From Thermodesulfobacteriota bacterium (GTDB taxonomy: Bacteria; Desulfobacterota_D; UBA1144; Nemesobacterales; JAJCZQ01), in the NCBI GenBank assembly GCA_965215275.1, contig OZ244044.1, positions 1,600,001 through 1,664,000 of the forward strand: a stretch of 64,000 nucleotides of DNA. Reading direction: 5' to 3'. The translations under genes and the position numbers were made by a program. The notes below the pieces were generated by a model that saw nothing but the letters and a program-made list of their open reading frames with translations, was not told the origin of the DNA and did no database searches. Shown one piece after another: positions 10,314 to 56,860 of this stretch; position 1 is the first letter of the stretch; every line of letters begins with the position of its first letter.

Positions 10314-10342
10314 TTGACATCACAGCAGAGCAGAAGTAAAAT
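10314..10342 (+). promoter_or_regulatory. Sigma70-type promoter of surface-protein locus 1
   Basis: TTGACA-17-TAAAAT, ATG at 10352; homologous to promoters at 49074 and 50314. Confidence 0.65.
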
Positions 10343-10388
10343 ATCAATGTTATGAAAATACCAAACATAAAAACGTGTAGTTCCATTA

Positions 10389-10397
10389 CCCCCCCCC
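10389..10397 (+). repeat. Poly-C tract (C9), first tract in the 5' region of the 1325-aa surface protein
   Basis: attaCCCCCCCCCgtg inside the short ORF from ATG 10352. Confidence 0.85.
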
Positions 10398-10458
10398 GTG
10401 TATACCTGAACTTTCAGTTATATATAAGTGTTTTGTAAGAACAATGTTTAAGATAATA

Positions 10459-10467
10459 CCCCCCCCC
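10459..10467 (+). repeat. Poly-C tract (C9), second tract, frameshifts the signal peptide
   Basis: ATG10444 ttt aag ata ata C9 atc taa; C8 or C11 would join PSKSLLTLVFILLIIMVIAAKG in the main frame. Confidence 0.85.
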
Positions 10468-10510
10468 ATCTAAGTCATTACTAACTTTAGTCTTTATTCT
10501 TCTGATTATT

Positions 10511-13500
10511 ATGGTCATAGCTGCAAAAGGAGAGAGCAGATTAGAAGACCAGTTATCTGAATGCAGAGATATCAGTGCAGACACGGAAGACCCGTTATAC
10601 GGATGTCAGTGGCATCTGAAGAACACGGGGCAGTTTATTTATTCAGGAAAGGAAATAACGGCAGGAGAAGATATAAACATAGAGGGTGTGTGGAACGAAG
10701 ACGTATACGGTTCTGGAATTAACGTAGCAGTTGTAAGTGATGGTATCGACCTTTCACATGAGGACCTTTCTGCAAACGTTGATCCTGGACTGAGCTATAA
10801 CTATTCCGAGAGCGTTGACCTTTCCGACAGTTCATCCTTTACCGGAACACGAGCAGCAGGAGTAATAGCAGCTACTGGATATAACGGACTGGGAGTAAGA
10901 GGAGTTGCACCCGGTGCAAGTATATACAGTAATGAGTTAACTGGTGATAACAGGGAAGTTGCCGCAGGGGATGCAATGGTCCGTAATAAGGAAATAACAG
11001 CAGTATCTGTTAACGACTGGGGACCGGAAGATAAATATTCTCTTGCTCAGGCATCAACTGTCTGGGAAGAAGGATTGGAACTTGGAATAAGTAAAGGGTT
11101 TTATGGTAAAGGTGTGTTTTACGTCCGGGGAGCAGGGGACGGGCATGAAAGAGGAGATCAGGCTAATTTTAATGAATATTCCAGCTATTACGGAGTAACA
11201 GCCGTTTGTTCAACGGACGGTTATGGAAAAAAGAGTATTTTTTCAGAAGAGGGAGTAAATCTATGGGTATGTGCACCTGGTTCTGATATTGTAACCACAG
11301 ATAACAACAACGATTACGTTGTAACTTCCGGAACTGTTCTATCAGCTTCACAGGCTGGAGGAGTGGCAGCACTGCTGAGAGAGATAAATGTAGATCTGAG
11401 CTGGAGGGATATAAAGCTTATACTTGCGGGTTCAGCACGGCAGAACGATTTTTCTGACGTGAGCTGGGAGACTGGAGCTGTTAAATACGGTTCTGATACG
11501 GAAAGATATAAATATAATCCTAAGTATGGTTTTGGCGTGGTAGACGCAGAAGCAGCCGCAGAACTTGCAAAAAGCTGGAAAGGCGTTGGTGAAATGAGGA
11601 CCGTTACAGCTTCTTCAGATAATGAACTGACAATCCCTGATAGAGATGGAGAAGCAGATGGGGTCCTTGTCTCCAGACTTATGATACCGGACCTGGAGGT
11701 AACATTTACGGAATTCGTTGAGGTAGAACTTGTTTTTTCTCATGACCGCTTACAGGACCTTGATATACAGATAACCTCTCCTTCCGGAACAACGTCTGAG
11801 CTTGTAAGGGAGTTTTCAGTTGAGGAAGAAGACGCTGAGATCAGTTATGTAAGAAGAACACATCGTTTCGGGTCGGCTAAGCACCTCGGAGAAGACCCTT
11901 CCGGAGAATGGATTCTCAATATAGCCGATACTGCTTCCGGAGATGAAGAAGATGGAGAAGAAGTGGGGACCTTACACTCCTGGAGCATTAAGGTATACGG
12001 GAATAAGAAGGGGGATACCGCTGCAGACCTTGCTAAGGAGATAACTCCTAAGGCTTTAACCTTCGGTGGTGCGACAGTTCAGGATCAGGTGTACAGAGCA
12101 GGAACTCAGATAACACCATTAGTACTGCCTGAGGCGACCGGGGCAGAAGGAATAACGTACAGTATAAGACCTGCTCCACCTGCTGGACTGAATTATAACG
12201 ATAATACCAGAACTATAAGCGGAACACCAACTGCTTCGCAGTCTAATATCCGTTATCAACATATTGCCAGAGACAAAGATGGGAAGACGACGAGTGTAGC
12301 GTTCCATATCAGGGTAAGGTTCCGTAACTCCACAACGCCGAGTTTCAGAGAGACTATCCCGGATCAGAACTATGTAACGGGGAGATCAATAACGCCACTG
12401 GTGTTCCCTCGTGCAACAGGAGGGGATGGTCAGCTAAGTTACAGTTTTGACGGCACTTTAAATAACTTACCAGGTGGATTGAGCCTTACCAGCAATCCGT
12501 TTAGGATAATTGGAACACCAAGTAATGCGGGGACAAGTACCTGGCAATGGACCGCTACTGACGCAGACGGGGATACGGCTACACTTGAGTTCAGGATAAG
12601 GATAAGAGCTGCAGCTGACGTTCCGGACTTCGGCGATACGCAGGTGAGGGATCAGACGTTTGGTAACGGCAGAACAATAAGTCTGGGAATGCCTGTGGCA
12701 GATGGAGGTAATGGAACTTTAAATTACAGTATAACTCCTGCCTTGCCTAATGGATTGACCTATACCAGTAACAACCGACAGATAAATGGAACGATCAACG
12801 TCTCTGGACAACTTCCTGTAACTACTACTTATACCTACAAGGTAACTGACTCTGATACAGATACTGATGACGGTGATTCTGATACTCTGACTTTCTCTTT
12901 TACGATAGAAGCTAATTCAGTGCCAAACTTCGGCAGTCAGACGGTAGAGGGTCAGGTGTATGCTACTGGGCAACAGGTAACGTTGACTCTGCCTCTTGCA
13001 ACGGGAGGGAATGGAAATTTAAGTTACAGTATAATCGGTGCTCTACCTTCCGGATTGAGTTTTAACCCAACCACCCGGGAGATAAGTGGAACACCAACTA
13101 CCGTAAAGTCTGCGAGGACTTATACATATAGAGCAAGGGACGATGATCTGGACACGGATACTATCACCTTCTCTATTACGATAACGGCCCTGTCCTTTGA
13201 CGGGCAGGTACCTTCTTCTCCTGTTTTGTACTCAGCAGAAAGACGAATAACACCAGTAACGCTGCCTGTGGCAACGGGAGGAGGTACTGCTCCATATACT
13301 TACAGTTTAACCCCTCGTTTACCTGATGGATTGAGTTTTAACCCAACCACCCGGGTTATAAGTGGAACACCGACTGCTGCGACGCCTTTGAATACTTATA
13401 CGTATACCGTTACAGACAGTAACGGAGTTACGGTGGAGATGACGTTCGATATTGCTGTAAGAGCACACTTTTCAGGCCTTACGATACAAAGTAAGGTGTA

Positions 13501-14488
13501 TACAGTCGGGACGGCAGTAATGGAAATGCTGCCTGAGGCAACTGGACATAATGGAACGGTAACATACAGTTTAACTCCTGAATTACCTTCCGGACTGGAT
13601 TTTACCCCTGCTACACGAGTGATAAGCGGAAGACCGACTGCTACACAGAATACGAGGCTTTATACGTATACTGATACTACCGGTACAGGTGGACCTGCTC
13701 GAACTTTGGTGTTCCATATCACGGTAAGAACAGAACCCAACACAATGCCGACCTTCGGCAGTGAAACTATAGATAATAAGGTGTATATAAACGGAGAAGC
13801 AGTAAATGAAACACTGCCTGAAGCAACGTCAGGGAATGCACCATTAACTTACAGCTTAAGTACTAATTTAGCAGGAGGTCGGCTAATTAACGGATTAAGT
13901 TTTAACAGAAACACCAGAGTATTAAGTGGAACACCTGATCTCAATCCAGTTCCACTTCCTGTAACTGTGAATCATACATATAAAGTAAGAGACAATGATG
14001 GAGATACAGCAGAGATAACGTTCAGTATAACAGTAGAAGAAGACAGCGAACCGGACTTCAGCGGTGTGACAATACCAGATCGTGTGTACACGGGTAGAAC
14101 AATAGAGCTGCCAGAGGCAGCGGGAGGGAATTTACCGGTTACATACAGTATAACGCCTGGTTTACCAGCGGGATTGAGTTTTAACGGTAGTACCAGAAGG
14201 ATAAGTGGGACACCCAGGAGTGCATCGACAAGAACTTACACGTATACGGCAACGGACAGGAATGGAGATATGGACACATTGGATTTCATGTTCAGTGTAG
14301 AGGTTACTTCTTCTCCACCACCACCAAATCCAAGACCAGCACCAGATACTGAAGCTGGTGGAGGAGGATGTGCGGTCTCAGAGCAGAGCAGCGTTGCTTC
14401 TGATATTCTCGGAGTAATGACATGTCTGATACTTATACCTGTATCTGTAACGATAAGAAGAAAGAGAAGATCTCATATAAAGACGTAG
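10511..14488 (+). CDS. Large surface protein: degenerate S8 (kexin-like) domain, P-domain, 8 Ig-like (He_PIG-type) repeats, GGGC-TM-basic tail; true 5' end lies upstream across poly-C tracts
   Basis: QWHLKNTGQ, LSWRDIKLIL, YGFGVVDA, GEWILNIAD; repeated LP.GL.FN..TR.ISGTP units; C-terminal GGGGCAV plus hydrophobic segment plus RRKRR. Confidence 0.85.
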   Translation: MVIAAKGESRLEDQLSECRDISADTEDPLYGCQWHLKNTGQFIYSGKEITAGEDINIEGVWNEDVYGSGINVAVVSDGIDLSHEDLSANVDPGLSYNYSESVDLSDSSSFTGTRAAGVIAATGYNGLGVRGVAPGASIYSNELTGDNREVAAGDAMVRNKEITAVSVNDWGPEDKYSLAQASTVWEEGLELGISKGFYGKGVFYVRGAGDGHERGDQANFNEYSSYYGVTAVCSTDGYGKKSIFSEEGVNLWVCAPGSDIVTTDNNNDYVVTSGTVLSASQAGGVAALLREINVDLSWRDIKLILAGSARQNDFSDVSWETGAVKYGSDTERYKYNPKYGFGVVDAEAAAELAKSWKGVGEMRTVTASSDNELTIPDRDGEADGVLVSRLMIPDLEVTFTEFVEVELVFSHDRLQDLDIQITSPSGTTSELVREFSVEEEDAEISYVRRTHRFGSAKHLGEDPSGEWILNIADTASGDEEDGEEVGTLHSWSIKVYGNKKGDTAADLAKEITPKALTFGGATVQDQVYRAGTQITPLVLPEATGAEGITYSIRPAPPAGLNYNDNTRTISGTPTASQSNIRYQHIARDKDGKTTSVAFHIRVRFRNSTTPSFRETIPDQNYVTGRSITPLVFPRATGGDGQLSYSFDGTLNNLPGGLSLTSNPFRIIGTPSNAGTSTWQWTATDADGDTATLEFRIRIRAAADVPDFGDTQVRDQTFGNGRTISLGMPVADGGNGTLNYSITPALPNGLTYTSNNRQINGTINVSGQLPVTTTYTYKVTDSDTDTDDGDSDTLTFSFTIEANSVPNFGSQTVEGQVYATGQQVTLTLPLATGGNGNLSYSIIGALPSGLSFNPTTREISGTPTTVKSARTYTYRARDDDLDTDTITFSITITALSFDGQVPSSPVLYSAERRITPVTLPVATGGGTAPYTYSLTPRLPDGLSFNPTTRVISGTPTAATPLNTYTYTVTDSNGVTVEMTFDIAVRAHFSGLTIQSKVYTVGTAVMEMLPEATGHNGTVTYSLTPELPSGLDFTPATRVISGRPTATQNTRLYTYTDTTGTGGPARTLVFHITVRTEPNTMPTFGSETIDNKVYINGEAVNETLPEATSGNAPLTYSLSTNLAGGRLINGLSFNRNTRVLSGTPDLNPVPLPVTVNHTYKVRDNDGDTAEITFSITVEEDSEPDFSGVTIPDRVYTGRTIELPEAAGGNLPVTYSITPGLPAGLSFNGSTRRISGTPRSASTRTYTYTATDRNGDMDTLDFMFSVEVTSSPPPPNPRPAPDTEAGGGGCAVSEQSSVASDILGVMTCLILIPVSVTIRRKRRSHIKT
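12055..14305 (+). repeat. Eight tandem ~90-100-aa Ig-like repeats
   Basis: Recurring F...T..D.VY..G...LPEATGG...TYS..P.LP.GL.F...TR.ISGTP...YTY..TD motif; boundaries approximate. Confidence 0.85.
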
Positions 14489-18122: not shown

Positions 18123-19577
18123 ATGGATAGTGAAGGAAGTGTGATCAGAAAGACGAGAGTAGACCTCAGGGCGGTTAAGTTGGATCCGTCTGCTCATAAG
18201 AAACTGGAATCTATGTTAAACCAGCTTACCTATCTTTATAACCGAGCTCGTGAAGAAAGGATAAGATCATATGATAAATATGAGAAACTGATGAAATGGG
18301 GTTTATCAGAAAAGAGATTTAAGACGTATTTCTATCCCCACTGGAAGTCTGGACTTTCTTATAATAAAGGTAATACAGTTAAACATATAGACAAGGTATA
18401 TATAGCTCTTAACAGGGTTAGAAGTGAAGTCCGACCTTGTAACGACCCGTTAAACTGGAGAGAGTTATCAGAAAAAGAAATAGGAAAGAAGTCGATCAGT
18501 TACGAAGATCAGGCAAGATCACTGACGGAAATAAGGAACGACCTTTTACTGTCTGATGAGTTTAGTAAGGTTGACGCTCAAGCGCAACAGCGGACGTTAC
18601 AAAGACTGGATAAGGCTTATAAAGAATATCTAAAAGGGATACGTGGTCGTCCGAGATATAAGAACAGTAGCAGAAAGATAAAAAGTTTTGAAACTTACCA
18701 ATGGAGTAGAGTTAAGAAACAAGACAGAAGAACTTCCTTGTCCGTAAAAGGAGCAGGCAGGATGAGTTTCAAAGGCAGGATACCGGAAGGAACTAAATAC
18801 ATAAGGATAGTAAGAACTGCTTTAAGAGTAGAGATACAGTTTGTATATGAAACAGTTGCAGGAGTGGACAGAGGGTCAGACAGACCGATAGGGATAGATC
18901 TCGGAGTGAAGAACAGAATTACCTTATCGGATGGAACTTTCTATAAAGGAACAGAAATAGACAGGAAGGAACTTAAAAGAAAGCAAAGAGCAATAAGCAG
19001 AGCTGAAAAAGGTTCTAACAACAGAAACAAGAAGAAAACAGCTTATGCCAAAGAACGTGCAAGGACCACTGAAAGGGAACATAATAAAATACATGAATTA
19101 ACTACAGGGATAGTAAAGGGTCATGGTAATCATTTTATAGTAGAAGATCTGAAGTTAAAGAACATGACAAAGTCCGCTAAGGGGACCGTGAAAGATCCTG
19201 GCAAGAAAGTAAAGCAGAAATCGGGATTGAACAGGTCTATACAGGAGCAGCAATTGGGAAAGGTCATTAGTCAGCTTACTTACAAGGTTGAGAGCACTGG
19301 AGGTAAGATAATAAGAGTTCCATCCCGATACACAAGCCAGACCTGTTCTGCATGCGGATATGCAGCTAAAAAGAACAGAAAAGGAGAGTTATTTAAGTGC
19401 ATGTCCTGTGGTTATAAAGGCCATGCTGACTTAAACGCAGCTAATAACGTTCTCAAAAGAGGTTTATTCTTTTTGTCGGGTGGGAATAAGGACGAGAGTC
19501 TCCCGGTGCAAGCTGGGAACGTTATATCAAAAGAGAACGGGGTCAGAGGGACTCTGCTTGCAGAACAGTATATTTAG
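18123..19577 (+). CDS. tnpB: RNA-guided endonuclease TnpB (element B)
   Basis: GIDLG / VEDL / ADLNAA; CSAC..CMSC; clear paralog of the element A protein. Confidence 0.93.
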   Translation: MDSEGSVIRKTRVDLRAVKLDPSAHKKLESMLNQLTYLYNRAREERIRSYDKYEKLMKWGLSEKRFKTYFYPHWKSGLSYNKGNTVKHIDKVYIALNRVRSEVRPCNDPLNWRELSEKEIGKKSISYEDQARSLTEIRNDLLLSDEFSKVDAQAQQRTLQRLDKAYKEYLKGIRGRPRYKNSSRKIKSFETYQWSRVKKQDRRTSLSVKGAGRMSFKGRIPEGTKYIRIVRTALRVEIQFVYETVAGVDRGSDRPIGIDLGVKNRITLSDGTFYKGTEIDRKELKRKQRAISRAEKGSNNRNKKKTAYAKERARTTEREHNKIHELTTGIVKGHGNHFIVEDLKLKNMTKSAKGTVKDPGKKVKQKSGLNRSIQEQQLGKVISQLTYKVESTGGKIIRVPSRYTSQTCSACGYAAKKNRKGELFKCMSCGYKGHADLNAANNVLKRGLFFLSGGNKDESLPVQAGNVISKENGVRGTLLAEQYI

Positions 19578-47221: not shown

Positions 47222-48925
47222 ATGGGCCGGATATTTTTAATCACTATATATGCTTCGTTGATCTTTTTATGTACCGCAGAATATAAAAGCGTTAATACTG
47301 CGGCCGCTCCTGCGGAAAAAACGCTGTCAGCGGAACTGCGTGTTTTATTGAACGATTCCCTTGAAAGCAAAAATATAACCTTTGGGGATAAGGTCTATCA
47401 GGCGTCTCCGCTGCTGAACAAACTCTATAAGTCCCGGCAGTACAACCTCATCTGGTTTAAGGAGGATATGAGTTCCGGTGAGTACCTGTCTCCAGGCAGG
47501 CACCTGTTCTCTTATCTGGAGGTACTGAGGGATTCAAAACTGGAAGGTCTGGATCCGAATTTCTACGATATTGAAAGTATTGAGAAAAATATCAATGAGA
47601 TGAAAGACCTGGAAGGGGACATCTTAAGATCAAGGGCGGTCCAGGTCGATCTGCTGATCTCTAACTCCAATATTTCCTATTTTATTGACCTTCTGTACGG
47701 GAGGTACGAGGTAGCCAGTAATTTTATAGAAAGAGACTACTTTGAATCCTATATAGATATTATTGCACTGATCGACAGGGCAGTATCGGAAAATAATTTT
47801 TCTGGTGCCGTAAGGGCACTGTTGCCTGACAGTTATTTCTACCATGCCCTGAAGAGATCTTTGATCAGATATGAAAATATAAAGGAAAATGGCGGATTGC
47901 ACCCCATACCTTTAGGTGAGAATTTACAACTTGGAGTATATGACGTCAGGGTCGTCTTCTTAAAGCATCGCTTATATACAACTGGAGACATTGATTTCAA
48001 ATTGAACGAGGAAGGGAAGCGGTATCTTAACGACCCGTTGTTCGATTACCGTTTGATTAAAGCAGTGAAACGCTTTCAAAGACGTCATGGGTTAAAAGCG
48101 GACAGCGTGGTTGGTGAAAATACTATTGCGGCAATGAACGTTCCGCTGAGTGAAAAGATAGACTCTATAAAAAGAAATCTGGATATATGGAGAAAACTGC
48201 CTCGGAATTTTGGAGATAGATATGTTATGGTCAACATTCCCGTGTTCAGGCTTTTTGCCGTTAAGGACAATACGCCCGTTTTGGAGATGAGTGCCATAGT
48301 GGGTACTCCCGACTGGAATACTCCCGTGTTGATCGATGATATAGAGTATGTGGCGATCAACCCTTACTGGAACATTCCAAAAAGCATATTTTCAGAGGAG
48401 GTATTACCCATTATCCGTAGTGACCCGAGCTATTTGGCAAAGGCAAATTTAGAAGTTCTTTCACTTGAAACTGACATAGTGCAGAAGGACTATTCGTGGG
48501 ACTGGTCCGAGGTTGATCCGGAGAATTTTAACTACAGGTTAAGACAGTTGCCGGGAGGTACGAACCCGCTTGGCAAGTTGAAGTTCCTTTTTCCCAATAA
48601 ATACAATGTGTACCTGCATGACACACCACACAGGCAGTTTTTTGACCAGCTTGATAAGAAACTGAGCCATGGGTGCATCAGGGTCGAAAAACCTGTCCAG
48701 CTGGCAGAGTTTATATTTGATTATGACAGCGAGTGGAATGCCGAAGTTATAAGGTCTCAGATCGACTCCGGACAGTCGTGGGAGATTCAGTTAGATCGGT
48801 CTGTGCCGGTGTACATAGTGTATTTTACGACCTGGGTGGGAGATGATGGTCTGACCTATTTCAGTGACGATTTCTATAATTTCTTAACCCCTGTCCAGGA
48901 AGTCCAAGAAGTCCAGGAAAATTAA
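47222..48925 (+). CDS. L,D-transpeptidase, YcbB/LdtD-like, with peptidoglycan-binding domain
   Basis: AVKRFQRRHGL, NPYWNIP, VYLHDTP, SHGCIRV. Confidence 0.92.
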   Translation: MGRIFLITIYASLIFLCTAEYKSVNTAAAPAEKTLSAELRVLLNDSLESKNITFGDKVYQASPLLNKLYKSRQYNLIWFKEDMSSGEYLSPGRHLFSYLEVLRDSKLEGLDPNFYDIESIEKNINEMKDLEGDILRSRAVQVDLLISNSNISYFIDLLYGRYEVASNFIERDYFESYIDIIALIDRAVSENNFSGAVRALLPDSYFYHALKRSLIRYENIKENGGLHPIPLGENLQLGVYDVRVVFLKHRLYTTGDIDFKLNEEGKRYLNDPLFDYRLIKAVKRFQRRHGLKADSVVGENTIAAMNVPLSEKIDSIKRNLDIWRKLPRNFGDRYVMVNIPVFRLFAVKDNTPVLEMSAIVGTPDWNTPVLIDDIEYVAINPYWNIPKSIFSEEVLPIIRSDPSYLAKANLEVLSLETDIVQKDYSWDWSEVDPENFNYRLRQLPGGTNPLGKLKFLFPNKYNVYLHDTPHRQFFDQLDKKLSHGCIRVEKPVQLAEFIFDYDSEWNAEVIRSQIDSGQSWEIQLDRSVPVYIVYFTTWVGDDGLTYFSDDFYNFLTPVQEVQEVQEN

Positions 48926-49231
48926 AAAAAGGTTTCCTGTCTTTTTATAAACACCTTGGAAGAAACTGCTGTTTAATGAATGGGGATCATCTGCTTGATT
49001 ACCCAGAAATTTAAATTACTTCTCTGCACTGACCTTGAAGTTTTGACCGGGTCGTTCAGCAAGGAAATTATTCTTGACATTCATTCAGGATACAAAGTAG
49101 AATAAAATAGTTATGAACATGTTATTCAGAGCAATACCCCCCCCCCTTATAATTCAGTAATTCCCCTTTTCTTTCTTCTTTGCCTTGTATCCGTTGAGGC
49201 ATATGGCCAGATTAATAATTGTGACTCCAGT
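48846..49231 (+). repeat. Duplicated segment copy 1 (3' end of Ldt gene, promoter, signal-peptide region); copy 2 at about 50105-50474
   Basis: High nucleotide similarity from ATGGTCTGACCTATTTCAGTGA to GAGGCATATGG.CAGAT.AATAA.TGTGAC. Confidence 0.9.
49137..49146 (+). repeat. Poly-C tract (C10) frameshifting the signal peptide of locus 2
   Basis: ATG49113 MNMLFRAIPPPLIIQ*; C11 or C8 gives ...PYNSVIPLFFLLCLVSVEAYG-QINNCD in frame with 49265..50050. Confidence 0.85.
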
Positions 49232-49264
49232 GCAGATATTGAAGCTACGCTGCAACTGGACGGA

Positions 49265-50050
49265 ATGGAAAGTCGCTATACTTTAGCAGATGCCAATGAC
49301 CTGGATTATTTTCAGATAGAGGTAACAGGTTCTGTTATGGTAGATATAGAGGTAGTCATGGTAGTTGCGGCTTTACCGACAGACTACAGGTTACAGTTGT
49401 GTGACAGCAATGATGATCTGATAGCCAGTGATACTGATGATTTAATTCTGAACGTTATGGATCAGCTTGAACCGGGAACGTACTATATCGTTATGGGAAA
49501 CAGCAGAGGTGTCGCATTATACGATATTGCAGTAATGGGTACCATAATTAATCCACCTGATCCTGACCCTAACATACCAACCTTTGGCAGTGAAACGATA
49601 GATGATCAGGATTACATAGCAGGGAATCCAATAACACCAGTAACTCTGCCTGCTGCAACGGGAGGGGATGGAGCATTAACATACAGCCTGACTCCTGCAT
49701 TACCAACCGGACTGGATTTTAACGCAGGTACTCGAGAGATAAGCGGGACACCCACTACTGTAACGAGCAGGACTACTTATACATATACTGTAACAGACGA
49801 TGACGGAGATACGGATGATTTGAACTTCAGGATCAGTGTAGAGGTTCCTCCTGCTCCGCCACCGCCAGGACCGACACCAACACCACGAAGACCGACAACA
49901 TCAGGTACTGATACAGGCGGAGGTGGAGGATGTGCGGTCTCCGATCAGAGCAACGTTGTTCCTGATCTGCTCGGAGCAGTGGCATGTCTGATGCTTATAC
50001 CCGTGTCAGTAGTGATCAGAAGGAAGATAATGTCTCAGATAAATATGTAG
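49265..50050 (+). CDS. Surface protein with a PPC-like beta domain, one Ig-like repeat and GGGC-TM-basic tail; true start probably 49113 across the poly-C tract
   Basis: DLDYFQIEV...LEPGTYYI; LPTGLDFN..TREISGTP; GGGGGCAVSDQS...RRK. Confidence 0.78.
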   Translation: MESRYTLADANDLDYFQIEVTGSVMVDIEVVMVVAALPTDYRLQLCDSNDDLIASDTDDLILNVMDQLEPGTYYIVMGNSRGVALYDIAVMGTIINPPDPDPNIPTFGSETIDDQDYIAGNPITPVTLPAATGGDGALTYSLTPALPTGLDFNAGTREISGTPTTVTSRTTYTYTVTDDDGDTDDLNFRISVEVPPAPPPPGPTPTPRRPTTSGTDTGGGGGCAVSDQSNVVPDLLGAVACLMLIPVSVVIRRKIMSQINM

Positions 50051-50104
50051 CAACGCGGTCTTTTCCAGGATGTTAAACTAACTAATATTTTTCCCATCAG
50101 AATA

Positions 50105-50474
50105 ATGGTCTGACCTATTTCAGTGAAGATTTCTATAATTTCTTAACCCCTGTCCAGGAAGATTAAAACGGTCTCCTGTCGTTTTATGATCACCTTAGGA
50201 AGAAGTTGCTGTTTAATGAATGGGAATTATCTGCCTGATTACCTGAAAACTTAGATTACTTCTCTGCACTGACCTTGAAGTTTTGAACGGGTCGTTTAGC
50301 AAAGAAATTATTCTTGACATTCGGTCAGGGTACAAAGTAGAATAGAAAAGTTATGAACATATCTTTTAGAGTAATACCCCCCCCTTTCTATCTAAGTTAG
50401 TAATTCCCTTTTTCTTTCTTCTGTGCCTTGTATCCATTGAGGCATATGGACAGATCAATAACTGTGACACCAGT
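50105..50474 (+). repeat. Duplicated segment copy 2
   Basis: Paralog of 48846-49231, includes TTGACA(50314)-18-TAGAAT and ATG 50353. Confidence 0.9.
50377..50384 (+). repeat. Poly-C tract (C8) frameshifting the signal peptide of locus 3
   Basis: ATG50353 MNISFRVIPPPFYLS*; C9 gives ...PFLSKLVIPFFFLLCLVSIEAYG-QINNCD...QWHLKNTG in frame with 50616..52106. Confidence 0.85.
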
Positions 50475-50615
50475 ACCACCGATCTCAATGATCCCTTATA
50501 CGGCTGTCAGTGGCATCTGAAAAATACAGGACAGCTTGGGGCTGTAACTACCTCTGGAGAAGATATAAACATAGAAGGGGTATGGGATGATAATGTATTC
50601 GGTGCTGGAATTAAT

Positions 50616-52106
50616 GTGGCGGTGGTAGATTATGGTATGCAAACCGGTCACGAGGACCTTGCTGATAATGTAAATACCAGCCTGAATCATGATTATTCAG
50701 GAAGCAGTAACATATACGACCCTTCAGAAACTCGTGGTACACGTGTATCGGGAGTTATAGCAGCAGTGGGAGATAACAGCCTTGGGGTAAGAGGCGTGGC
50801 ACCACAGGCAGGCATCTATAGTTATAATTTAGCTGGCAACTTCAGCGGTGCCAACGCAAAGGATGCCATGGTCCGTAACAGAGATACAACGGCTGTATCC
50901 GTCAACAACTGGGGACCGAATGACCTGCCTCTTCTCAGAGAGGCTTCATCAGATTGGGAAGAAGGAGTGGGAACGGGTATAAGTGAAGGGTTTGGTGGTA
51001 AAGGGGTATTTTATGTGTGGGCGGCCGGGGACGGAGATAAAAGGGCAGATCAGGCTAATTTTGATGAGTATTCCAGCTACTACGCTGTAACTGCCGTATG
51101 TTCGGTAGATGGAGAAGGGAACAAGAGTTCTTTTTCAGAAGAAGGAGTAAATCTTTGGGTATGTGCTCCAGGAGAAAATATTACAACTACTGATAATAAC
51201 AATGAATATATTTTTGATGCAAGTGGAACAGCATATTCAGCAGCACAGGTTGCAGGTGTGGCGGCACTGATGAGGGAGGTAAACGGTGACCTTAGCTGGA
51301 GAGACCTTAAACTGATACTTGCAACTTCAGCTCGTAAGAACGACGCTTCTGACACAAGCTGGGAGACGGGAGCACAGAAGTACGGTTCTGGTTCAGAAAA
51401 TTATAATTACAATCCTAAGTATGGTTTTGGTGTGGTAGATGCAGAAGCAGCAGCAGGACTTGCTGAAAGCTGGACTAATGTTCCAAGGATGAGAACTCAG
51501 ACCGTTTCCTCCGGGACTATTGATATGGCAATCATCGACCACGATGACATAACCGGAGTAGACGGAGAAACTATTTCCAGACTGACAATACCGGATACTT
51601 CTCTTTCTTTTACAGAGTTTGTAGAGGTTGAGTTTAATTTCTCTCACACGTTCTTGCCAGATCTGGAAATACAGATAACCTCCCCTGACGGTACTGTGTC
51701 ACAGCTTACTGAGGAATATACAGCAGGAGCGATATTACTCGTACTTAACACTTCACTCACTTCAAGTGACTTTGATTACACGAACAAAACTCATCGTTTT
51801 GGTTCAGCCAGGCACCTTGGAGAAGACCTTGCCGGAGAATGGATTTTGAAAATAACTGATCATCATAATGGAGGTTCAGGGATTTTACACTCGTGGAGCA
51901 TTAAAGTTTATGGTCACGGGAGGGAAGATACAGTTGCACCACCGCCACAAGGTCCAGTGTCAGATAGTGATACAGGTGGAGGAGGATGTGTGGTCTCTGA
52001 TCAGAACGAAGTTGTTTCGAATCTGCTTGGAGTAATGGCATGTCTGATGCTTATACCTGTATCAGCAGTGATCAGAAGAAAGATAAGGTCTCAGATAAAT
52101 ATGTAG
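50616..52106 (+). CDS. Degenerate S8 (kexin-like) plus P-domain surface protein with GGGC-TM-basic tail; true start probably 50353 across the poly-C tract
   Basis: Paralog of the N-terminal part of 10511..14488; frame open upstream to the C tract. Confidence 0.85.
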   Translation: MAVVDYGMQTGHEDLADNVNTSLNHDYSGSSNIYDPSETRGTRVSGVIAAVGDNSLGVRGVAPQAGIYSYNLAGNFSGANAKDAMVRNRDTTAVSVNNWGPNDLPLLREASSDWEEGVGTGISEGFGGKGVFYVWAAGDGDKRADQANFDEYSSYYAVTAVCSVDGEGNKSSFSEEGVNLWVCAPGENITTTDNNNEYIFDASGTAYSAAQVAGVAALMREVNGDLSWRDLKLILATSARKNDASDTSWETGAQKYGSGSENYNYNPKYGFGVVDAEAAAGLAESWTNVPRMRTQTVSSGTIDMAIIDHDDITGVDGETISRLTIPDTSLSFTEFVEVEFNFSHTFLPDLEIQITSPDGTVSQLTEEYTAGAILLVLNTSLTSSDFDYTNKTHRFGSARHLGEDLAGEWILKITDHHNGGSGILHSWSIKVYGHGREDTVAPPPQGPVSDSDTGGGGCVVSDQNEVVSNLLGVMACLMLIPVSAVIRRKIRSQINM

Positions 52107-52242: not shown

Positions 52243-52317
52243 TGGAGCCAACGAGGGGAGTCGAACCCCTGACCTGATCATTACGAGTGAACTGCTCTAC
52301 CACTGAGCTACGTTGGC
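52243..52317 (-). tRNA. tRNA-Thr(CGT)
   Basis: GCCAACGTAGCTCAGTGGTAGAGC...ctCGTaa...GGTTCGACTCCCCTCGTTGGCTCCA cloverleaf with encoded CCA. Confidence 0.96.
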
Positions 52318-54901: not shown

Positions 54902-56860
54902 TTACTTGTTTTTGTTCATTTTATACGAATGCTCATGGACGGTGTCAACTAAGGACAGAACGTTGTCCACGGGAGTGTTGGGCAATATGCCGTGACCAAG
55001 ATTAAAGATATGTCCCGGTCTGCCGCCTGCCTCGTTAAGTATCCTCTTTGCCTCCTCATTGACCCGTGACCGGGTGGAAAGCAGGACTACCGGGTCCATA
55101 TTACCCTGTATTGCCTTGTTGTAACCTATCTGCTTCCATGCTGTTTTTATACTGACCTTCCAGTCAACGCCCACGACCCCGCAGCCTGTCCTGGCGATCT
55201 GCTTCAGGAGCGATGACGTGTCCGTGCCAAAAAGGATCACCGGCACGTTCCTGTCTATCATGCTCACAAGTTTTTTTGTATACGGAAAAACAAACTCCCT
55301 GTAGTCTCCGGGAGATAGGCAGCCGACCCAGCTGTCGAATATCTGAACGGCGTCTGCACCTGCTTCGATCTGTCCGTTCAGATAGGCCGCGGTGGCATCG
55401 GTAAGTCCGTTCATAAGCAGGTCCCATGATTCGGGGTCCTGAAGCATCAAGGTCTTGGTTTTTGCATAATTTTTGGACCCGCTTCCCTCGATCGCGTAAG
55501 ACGCAAGTGTGAAAGGAGCTCCGGAAAAACCTATTAATGCTTTCCCGGGGTCTAAGGCCTTTCTGGTCAGCCTGATGGCGTCGTAGACGAACTTCATCGA
55601 ATCCGGCTCGAACTCGGGAAGTGAACTGATCGACGATGAGGAGCCGAGTTTCTTACTTATCCTCGGTCCGTCGTTTGTTTGATATTCCAGGTCGAGCCCG
55701 AACGATTCCAGTATAAGCAGAATATCTGAAAATATTATAGCAGCGTCTACGTTCAGCTTTTCAGCCGCCATGAGAGTGACCTCAGCGGCAAGGTCACGGG
55801 TCTTGCACATCTCTGTAAAGGAGACCTTTGATCTGATCTGTCTGTACTCCCTAAGGAAACGTCCAGCCTGTCTCATGATCCAGACGGGTGTATAATCCGT
55901 TGTCTCAAGGTTGCAGGCTTTCAGAAAGACCGGATCTCGTTTTGCATTTTTAGGTCGAGGACCCTGAACGTTTTCCCATACCATGTCGGTCCTTTTCCAG
56001 TTAACGGTCTTTATTCCAAGACCTCGTGCCTTTCTTTTTTTGGTTAAAAGCCTGTTTGCCGTTCTGGCGAGTTCTCTGACCAGGTTTCCCATCCTGGGAT
56101 CGTTTGGTTCGTAATCTGCCGAGATCCCGTATTTTTTCAGGGTTTCCGTTGTAGTTGGCCCTATGGAGCCGATCACGACGTTGGATAATCCTTCATATAG
56201 ATCGTTCTTTGATCCCAGGTCAGAAGCAAGGCTGACGAGATTTACGACCTGTTGTGAACTTGTGAACAGAACAACGTCTTCATCCTTGCTGTGTATCGAC
56301 CGTATTGCAGTTTTAAGGGGCTGCAGGTCATCAGGGAAACCCCACTTGTACACGGTTATGGTCTTTACCTTTGCTCCTCTGTCCTCAAGGTTTTTTAGAA
56401 ATTCCCTGTTCTTGGCACCGTATTCCTGGACATAAATGGTTTTATTTTTAATTTCTAACTCCGAGTCCATGGTAGACAGAACGTCTTTCCATGTGTTTGG
56501 TGAGGGGATCGTTATATCAGGCTTTATACTTATCTCCCTCAGTGCCGCAACGGGTTTTGGACCTCTTGTGACCACGGTGACGTTCTGCAAAGCCGTAGTG
56601 TACTTTTCAAAACCGTCTTTCTTTGTCATAAGGTCAGACAGCATTCGTGTTCCGACCCCGGTGAATAAAACAAGGATATGGACCTTATTGCCGTAAAGGT
56701 CCTTGGCAAAACCGGATATGTCCTTTGACTGTACCGGTACTTCCTTCATGGACGGGGACACTCTGGGAACGCCGTTGTGATAGATGATCAGCCTTTCCAT
56801 TACATTTGAAAGACGGCTTTCAAATGAAGTGACCTTCAGTTTGTTAAAGTGTTCTGTCAT
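54902..56860 (-). CDS. hemE: Uroporphyrinogen-III synthase (HemD)-uroporphyrinogen decarboxylase (HemE) fusion
   Basis: N-terminal RGPKP, VYKW, FTSS, SIGPTT (HemD); C-terminal PVWIMRQAGR, FSDIL, FNLGHG (HemE). Confidence 0.9.
   Translation of the reverse strand: MTEHFNKLKVTSFESRLSNVMERLIIYHNGVPRVSPSMKEVPVQSKDISGFAKDLYGNKVHILVLFTGVGTRMLSDLMTKKDGFEKYTTALQNVTVVTRGPKPVAALREISIKPDITIPSPNTWKDVLSTMDSELEIKNKTIYVQEYGAKNREFLKNLEDRGAKVKTITVYKWGFPDDLQPLKTAIRSIHSKDEDVVLFTSSQQVVNLVSLASDLGSKNDLYEGLSNVVIGSIGPTTTETLKKYGISADYEPNDPRMGNLVRELARTANRLLTKKRKARGLGIKTVNWKRTDMVWENVQGPRPKNAKRDPVFLKACNLETTDYTPVWIMRQAGRFLREYRQIRSKVSFTEMCKTRDLAAEVTLMAAEKLNVDAAIIFSDILLILESFGLDLEYQTNDGPRISKKLGSSSSISSLPEFEPDSMKFVYDAIRLTRKALDPGKALIGFSGAPFTLASYAIEGSGSKNYAKTKTLMLQDPESWDLLMNGLTDATAAYLNGQIEAGADAVQIFDSWVGCLSPGDYREFVFPYTKKLVSMIDRNVPVILFGTDTSSLLKQIARTGCGVVGVDWKVSIKTAWKQIGYNKAIQGNMDPVVLLSTRSRVNEEAKRILNEAGGRPGHIFNLGHGILPNTPVDNVLSLVDTVHEHSYKMNKNK

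Follow-up and report, generated by a model that had tools for sequence, protein, structure and literature searches.

Poly-C tracts in the signal-peptide codons of a 52-gene, kexin-like family as probable phase-variation switches in an uncultured Thermodesulfobacteriota bacterium

A 64,000-nucleotide stretch of the genome of a Thermodesulfobacteriota bacterium (contig OZ244044.1, positions 1,600,001 to 1,664,000; hereafter the window, whose numbering is used for genes A, B and C) carries three related genes that begin with runs of C. Genes A (49113-50050) and B (50353-52106) are neighbours, while gene C (10352-14488) lies apart from them. In each, a C run separates the start codon from the rest of a predicted signal peptide and leaves the long open reading frame (ORF) out of frame. 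A first-pass annotation of the window had read such runs as slipped-strand contingency loci of surface proteins. The genome is a single contig of 1.99 Mb with 42.5% G+C and is 99.87% complete. The features of the three genes, predicted from the sequence, are as follows.

49074..49103, + strand: gene A, predicted sigma-70-like promoter TTGACA-18-TAGAAT (TTGACA 49074-49079, TAGAAT 49098-49103), with the ATG 9 nucleotides on
49113..49146, + strand: gene A, start codon, 8-codon leader and ATA-C10 (C10 at 49137-49146), out of frame
49147..49207, + strand: gene A, hydrophobic core of the signal peptide with the AYG cleavage site; it follows the frame of the long ORF and is shifted by one base from that of the ATG
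49208..49549, + strand: gene A, small beta-type domain (about 110 amino acids) at the N terminus, shared within the family; tblastn gives 27 matches across the genome, its own included
49604..49840, + strand: gene A, putative Ig domain He_PIG (PF05345, E 1e-10)
49916..50050, + strand: gene A, C-terminal sorting-type tail (Gly run, Cys, spacer, transmembrane segment, Arg/Lys cluster)
50314..50343, + strand: gene B, predicted promoter TTGACA-18-TAGAAT (TTGACA 50314-50319, TAGAAT 50338-50343)
50353..50384, + strand: gene B, start codon, leader and ATA-C8 (C8 at 50377-50384), out of frame
50385..50450, + strand: gene B, hydrophobic part of the signal peptide plus the AYG cleavage site, read in the frame of the long ORF
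50601..51341, + strand: gene B, subtilase (S8) domain, kexin/furin-like and predicted inactive (Pfam; kexin alignment E 2e-32)
51615..51905, + strand: gene B, proprotein-convertase P domain (PF01483)
51975..52106, + strand: gene B, C-terminal sorting-type tail with the same motif as gene A
10314..10397, + strand: gene C, first cassette: TTGACA-17-TAAAAT, ATG1 at 10352 and tract 1, C9 (10389-10397), out of frame with ATG2
10406..10467, + strand: gene C, second cassette: decayed promoter CTGAAC-17-TGTTTT, ATG2 at 10444 and tract 2, C9 (10459-10467), out of frame
10468..14488, + strand: gene C, long ORF: signal-peptide remainder, S8 domain, P domain, seven He_PIG repeats and sorting-type tail (14357-14488)

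The layout first described for genes A and B, with identical promoters, an ATG 9 nucleotides downstream and C runs that break the frame, was borne out to the coordinate. From ATG to stop gene A measures 938 nucleotides and gene B 1754, and both leave a remainder of 2 on division by 3. The signal-peptide core was also where it had been placed, with the hydrophobic stretch and the AYG/Q junction in the frame of the long ORF; the sequence type found in gene A is complete in in-frame paralogues. The two promoters are the best-scoring sites of the region (11 of 12) and their geometry recurs 5' of start codons across the family. The count of promoter-like sites alone is not significant, because 11 were found in the region against 7.0 +/- 2.7 in shuffles. 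Gene C had been said to share the ATA-C(n) feature. An ATA-C9 is present, but it is the one after the second ATG, and the gene has two tracts (starting at 10389 and 10459), both out of frame and in opposite directions. The distance from the ATG at 10352 to the stop is a multiple of 3, yet two stops block that path.

Gene A is a short family member, without the protease domain and without the P domain. Its N-terminal domain has no Pfam hit at E 0.1; we infer a PPC-like fold. The Pfam PPC assignment itself was unconfirmed, as the weak matches in P0107 and P0021 fall outside the PPC stretches of those proteins. The block around the start of gene B (50152-50474) is an 86% copy of 48911-49231, and the end of the L,D-transpeptidase gene that precedes gene A has been partly copied before gene B (48861-48902 against 50120-50161, 97.6% match). 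The 86% identity of the upstream block and the common tail are consistent with an origin of genes A and B by tandem duplication.

Long C or G runs are a feature of the entire genome. There are 787 runs of length 5, 78 of length 6, none of length 7 and 139 of at least 8, where about 0.85 would be expected by extrapolating the 6/5 ratio. The excess, together with the gap at 7, excludes a chance origin. The longest A/T runs have 9 bases. More than half of the long tracts (80 of 139) sit at the 5' ends of 52 paralogues of the family to which genes A, B and C belong, with C on the coding strand in all 80. Loss of mismatch repair was considered as a cause of the tracts and ruled out, since neither MutS nor MutL is broken, their ORFs being open over 868 and 617 codons, respectively.

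The search for further paralogues that the first-pass annotation had proposed thus uncovered a large family. Its common plan is a signal peptide, a kexin-like subtilase domain, Ig repeats and a Cys-containing membrane anchor. Altogether 59 ORFs share the tail (Gly-run, Cys, spacer, transmembrane segment, basic cluster), whose Cys is invariant by construction as it was part of the search motif, and the family fills about 187 kb, or 9.4% of the genome. The tails are unevenly distributed between the strands, with 45 on the + strand against 14 on the - strand, and past 800 kb the ratio reaches 28 to 1. Long ORFs overall show almost no such bias, and the pattern extends over both replichores.

Frame was scored by script from an ATG located 30-46 nucleotides after TTGAC; it lies at 37-40 in 49 of 50 genes, partly by construction. 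Among 23 single-tract genes, 12 need a shift of +1, seven need -1 and four are in frame. Only one of 27 two-tract genes is in frame, and eight need +1 followed by -1. Two further genes outside the script's motif were added by reading (1533596, single and in frame; 1486505, double and out of frame). This gives 5/24 in-frame genes with a single tract (p 0.28 against 1/3) and 1/28 with two (p 0.36 against 1/9), fractions that are compatible with random states. In four of the two-tract genes (genome positions 1007857, 1102198, 1486505 and 1496582) tract 2 alone is in frame. The three window genes are all OFF, as had been claimed, but this does not extend to the family, where 6/52 are in frame. These in-frame copies are scattered over a quick tree. 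Seven genes were scored tract-less, one of which (518269) was set aside for its G runs on the coding strand before the ATG and inside the ORF, leaving six. In that member (518331-518958, L017), 5 nucleotides separate a G11 run from the ATG, and a G13 run within the ORF interrupts the protease domain.

Despite being out of frame, most of these copies hold ORFs of 650-1570 codons open. Estimates of dN/dS are 0.29-0.40 per group; among out-of-frame members only they are 0.30-0.41, and in the intact group 0.40. Tract length also differs among copies whose 14+14-nucleotide flanks are identical: 9-12 in a set of eight copies, 9-11 in a set of six and 8-9 in a set of seven, with an overall span of 8-13.

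The 28 two-tract genes, gene C included, share a further design. In all of them the piece between the tracts repeats the family promoter geometry, i.e. a hexamer, 17 nucleotides, a second hexamer, 9 nucleotides and an ATG. A few genes have a near-consensus second promoter, such as TTGACC-17-TACAAT at 206486, but in most it has decayed (hexamers such as CTGACC, TATTTT or TGTTTT). The piece is free of stops in the frame of the second ATG in 28/28 genes, compared with 3/28 and 1/28 in the other frames. From this we infer a tandem duplication of a promoter-ATG-tract cassette, which now forms one leader that would need both tracts in frame. With the second promoter lost to decay in most genes and the inter-tract piece readable in the ATG2 frame only, the two tracts are predicted to act as an AND gate. 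If the second ATG can start translation, from its own promoter or by re-initiation (the leader stop lies 8 nucleotides upstream), the output of these genes would instead take three levels. In the single-tract genes 652448 and 421709 the left flank of tract 1 is joined to the right flank of tract 2, as expected from a deletion between tracts.

Are these tracts real, and do they vary? We compared the window with assembled contigs from other sequencing runs, a scope in which rare tract alleles are invisible. Runs X1 to X4 belong to one study (P1), possibly including the source sample, and their library type is unrecorded. Contigs bridge tract A (49070-49420, or 49070-49670 in X2) and tract B (50257-50415) in all four, with 0 differences, C10 and C8, and depths of 14-232 at A and 17-500 at B. 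Taken as far as contigs permit, the check for assembly error that the first-pass annotation had called for brought no refutation. In X6, from another study (P3), a 3592-nucleotide contig anchored in the upstream transpeptidase gene spans 48800-49762 at 96.6% identity, with 33 substitutions and three gaps. One gap is a base missing at 49137, giving C9, which is still out of frame; the other two cancel each other. The same lengths in four runs and the C9 in the strain from another study argue that the tracts are both real and variable. Run X5, of another study, has a depth of 7.1 at 49137 with no indel and no bridging contig listed, and almost no cover upstream of B, while the contigs of X8 and X9 do not span tract A.

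Two side observations concern the same contigs. In X1, the depth over 49740-50415 is 454-500 against 232-301, about twice the single-copy level, which is not so in X2-X4 and suggests an extra tandem copy of the gene A tail and gene B promoter in that sample. In X6, among the substitutions listed, one falls in 48800-49270 and about 22 in 49274-49524, within the N-terminal domain of gene A; a recombination or gene-conversion patch is possible.

Orthologues in other assemblies give indirect evidence, from gene calls. In five comparisons, two in-frame genes were whole there too and two out-of-frame genes were clipped there too. The in-frame paralogue 1482199 has an orthologue that was called without a signal peptide in two assemblies (P0282, P0317). 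Tract-less genes get clipped calls too (P0277, P0314), which weakens evidence of this type.

In a census of 54 aligned S8 domains, 47 of the 48 that carry a tract lack a catalytic-triad residue, whereas all six tract-less ones have D-H-N-S. The sole triad-intact, tract-bearing domain (427581) has its tract further upstream. Genes B and C have the S8-then-P-domain order of the S8B (kexin/furin) type, and kexin and furin are the closest solved structures to the S8 domain of gene B. Neither gene has the set of triad and oxyanion residues of an active S8B protease: gene B keeps the Asp (50628), but has Arg for the His (50733), Asp for the oxyanion Asn (51030) and Ala for the Ser (51231), and gene C has replaced all three triad residues (S, T, V). 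A CspC-type, non-triad NCBIfam model gave a weak hit. Pseudoprotease families are known from Clostridioides, with CspC, and from the inactivated protease paralogues of scabies mites; the likeness lies in the many dead paralogues beside a few intact ones. The present proteins differ from these families in being prokaryotic, in a predicted membrane anchor below a stalk of Ig domains and in their probable control by homopolymer tracts.

At the other end of the protein, the tail resembles the MYXO-, JDVT- and Synerg-CTERM sorting signals as those are described (bioRxiv 10.1101/2023.06.07.544157; PMC11980579), with a Gly-rich motif ending in Cys, a transmembrane segment and an Arg-rich end on 59 ORFs, and one CPBP protease in the genome. 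It differs in a polar spacer of about 12 residues between the Cys and the membrane segment, and in its scores. The gene A tail has weak, sub-threshold matches to Cys-containing CTERM models, and tails across the family score 8.5-15.3 bits against cut-offs of 22.5-29. The best NCBIfam matches of the CPBP protease are myxosortases, at 65.4 bits against a cut-off of 100 for Mrt_core. With all scores below curated cut-offs, the system is at most a new, lineage-specific member of this class. The CPBP gene has a match in 30/40 relatives and adjoins paralogue 678054, an adjacency to one of about 60 family loci that could be chance. By analogy with MYXO-CTERM, the family proteins are predicted to be anchored at the surface.

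We consider it likely that the tracts are slipped-strand ON/OFF phase-variation switches, set in the signal-peptide codons of 52 genes for mostly protease-dead, predicted surface-anchored, kexin-like proteins. The contingency-locus reading first proposed is thereby still the best one, with the bridging contigs and the C9 strain in its support. Tract position, length variation and target class (surface, glycan-modifying, restriction-modification) all agree with those of phase-variable genes mediated by simple sequence repeats. Mechanistically, a sigma-70-type promoter would produce a nearly leaderless mRNA. A slip of one C during replication would then either join the ATG to the signal peptide, permitting export, or end translation within about 20 codons. 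Exported protein would be anchored through its Gly-Cys-transmembrane-basic tail, probably after processing by the single CPBP/myxosortase-like protease of the genome. In the 28 two-tract genes the AND gate would lower the chance of being ON from 1 in 3 to about 1 in 9. Any one lineage would show only a few of the binding or decoy proteins at its surface, and the six tract-less, triad-intact proteases would stay in frame.

Several observations weigh against this interpretation. No contig with an alternative tract length was found at A or B in X1-X4, although rare variants are lost from contigs, and none of the 8 runs compared showed A or B in frame. Tract states are common to 4/5 of the orthologue comparisons, and the internal start calls also hit tract-less genes. 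Pairwise dN/dS records old history rather than present use, and about six loci have further internal breaks. The 28 inter-tract pieces are related, with 24 distinct sequences. The tail and the CPBP protease both fall under every curated cut-off. The six tract-less proteases form one clade on the quick, unrooted tree, so that the link between tracts and dead enzymes represents one or few events, not 54. Finally, mismatch repair is intact here and, by the account in PMC8355987, absent from Campylobacter jejuni. Given intact MutS and MutL and states common to samples, switching is probably slow.

This brings us to the strongest rival: change in the tracts would be confined to evolutionary timescales, they would mostly mark an over-expanded family on its way to pseudogenes, and nothing adaptive would switch inside a host population. 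The identical lengths in the four runs of one study, the absence of an indel in X5, the states common to orthologues, the working mismatch repair, the internal breaks and a remnant leader at genome position 633539 all sit well with it. That said, decay does not readily explain ORFs of such length still open at dN/dS of 0.30-0.41, a tract at one position in 52 genes as well as in methylase and glycan genes, or in-frame copies scattered over the tree. We regard this explanation as unlikely.

Recoding is less probable again. Here RNA polymerase would slip on the C run, or the ribosome would shift on CCC codons, each out-of-frame copy would yield some full-length protein, and the tract would set an expression level rather than an ON/OFF state. 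It would account for conserved ORFs in copies that are mostly out of frame, and the tract does encode a proline run close to the start codon. However, the transcriptional slippage named as an alternative in the first-pass annotation is disfavoured, as is frameshifting, because single-tract genes require shifts in both directions, and in two-tract genes the two shifts required are often of opposite sign. Furthermore, DNA lengths themselves vary between copies and strains, and polymerase slippage is best known on A/T runs.

Least credible of all is a homopolymer error in a long-read genome whose genes are really in frame: the assembly is a single contig and the exact matches come from one study that may include the source sample, but four runs agree, an unrelated study gives an out-of-frame C9, orthologues lack signal peptides in other assemblies, and the genome combines near-completeness with the empty class at length 7.

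Many of the tracts outside the family fall in gene classes usual for phasomes, in favour of the switching interpretation. The ORFs at non-family tracts were sampled (38 scanned of 56 listed, near-duplicates such as further TPR genes being omitted), and 23/38 have Pfam hits: 13 restriction-modification or DNA methylase ORFs, three S-adenosylmethionine methyltransferases, two glycosyltransferases, one sulfotransferase, one TPR protein, one AAA ATPase and two conserved hypothetical families. A promoter-spacer filter flagged 1/59 non-family tracts and is too strict for classifying them. In eight paralogous TPR genes a tract of C9-C11 occurs some 100 codons after the ORF start, with some copies in frame and others not (L176, L177, L194, L204, L205, L207). 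Three lipoprotein-like genes without Pfam hits (94069, 1295437, 1301357; L178, L195) have a G9-G10 run a few bases 5' of the ATG, which could alter promoter or ribosome-site spacing. The named matches of RecA, at 67-69%, belong to Dadabacteria, bacterium HR37, Desulfobacterota and Deltaproteobacteria, the closest named match of GlmS (L022, 82%) is a Spirochaetia record, and a search for flagellin found none; a Dadabacteria-type lineage is probable. A sponge host is possible, going by the domain make-up of homologues.

A comparison across 101 genomes of the order puts this one first in runs of at least 9 (133), ahead of G011 (130), G025 (113) and G072 (75). Runs of exactly 7 number 15 in G011 and 16 in G025; G072 (84) and G005 (76) are without the gap. 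From five relatives, 42 loci were sampled: several of their tracts fall in the gap from a TTGAC to a -10-like hexamer, some are within restriction-modification genes and others within signal-peptide codons. The poly-G tracts at the first of these positions (L109 and L118 in G001, before a paralogous lipoprotein-like family; L133, L146 and L153 in G025 and G011) are candidate promoter-spacer switches. In other families of the order, poly-C runs of 24 (L160, G005) and 11 (L155, G072) separate the start codon from the signal peptide in unrelated genes for secreted proteins. A query with gene B found no expansion in 30 close-relative genomes, with one or two distant matches in 7/30, but this does not establish an absence, given a same-genus genome that is split into 190 contigs and reaches 80% completeness. 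A genome-collection scan with gene B confirmed 0/41 candidate stretches, and metagenome pattern scans with the family promoter and with the signal-peptide junction gave 0 matches.

The window holds some other landmarks that we list for completeness.

47222..48925, + strand: L,D-transpeptidase gene 5' of gene A (Pfam YkuD, Scaffold, PG_binding_1), which anchors orthology across strains
52243-52317: tRNA-Thr(CGT), directly 3' of gene B
18123-19577: IS605-type TnpB gene
54902-56860: HemD-UroD fusion gene

The mechanism itself is a known one. Chlamydia pneumoniae reportedly has a poly-C family, Cpn1054, and the opa genes of Neisseria and the Helicobacter pylori hop genes have repeats in the signal-peptide codons of paralogous adhesins. 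Neisseria pilC1 is described as switching ON/OFF by slipped-strand changes in a poly-G tract (PMC5231331). As in the descriptions of pilC1, opa and hop, a repeat close to the start codon determines the reading frame of a surface-protein gene, the genes are paralogous and mismatch repair works. A Campylobacter survey reports 5-81 putative phase-variable genes per strain with a peak at 9-10 bases (PhasomeIt, PMC6321876). Modal lengths of 9-10 and tracts in methylase, glycan-modifying and restriction-modification genes are features that our genome shares. The differences are that 139 tracts are found here against those 5-81 genes, the counting units being different, and that C is on the coding strand in only 5% of in-ORF tracts there, against all 80 family tracts here.

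In the open-access literature we found nothing on phase variation in sponge symbionts or via contingency loci in uncultured genomes, and among the titles listed on Dadabacteria and sponge genomes none has phase variation. The mechanism is textbook material, documented almost only in cultured pathogens; what is unusual is the scale and design. New in this work are the confirmation by contigs, the length difference between strains, the link to dead enzymes and the origin of the double tract.

We put forward one broader picture only tentatively. Around 9% of the 2-Mb genome of an uncultured symbiont would encode furin/kexin-like surface proteins that are dead as enzymes, a library switched at random and serving as substrate traps, adhesins or decoys, with only the intact proteases unswitched. 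Its two-input logic would come from tandem cassettes, as an AND gate or, where the second promoter works, an OFF/low/high dial. With a 139-tract phasome above the Campylobacter survey counts, and 113-130 in complete genomes of the order, large phasomes would be a hidden trait of the lineage that is lost in fragmented assemblies.

If the tracts switch, an uncultured lineage uses contingency loci at or above the scale of the best-known pathogens, and offers 52 parallel copies for comparing single- with double-tract logic in one genome. Surface repertoires of this kind are likely under-counted in metagenome surveys, because gene callers clip the signal peptides of such genes and fragmented assemblies can lose them. 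Finally, the pairing of switchability with lost catalysis suggests roles for bacterial pseudoproteases at the host or phage interface.

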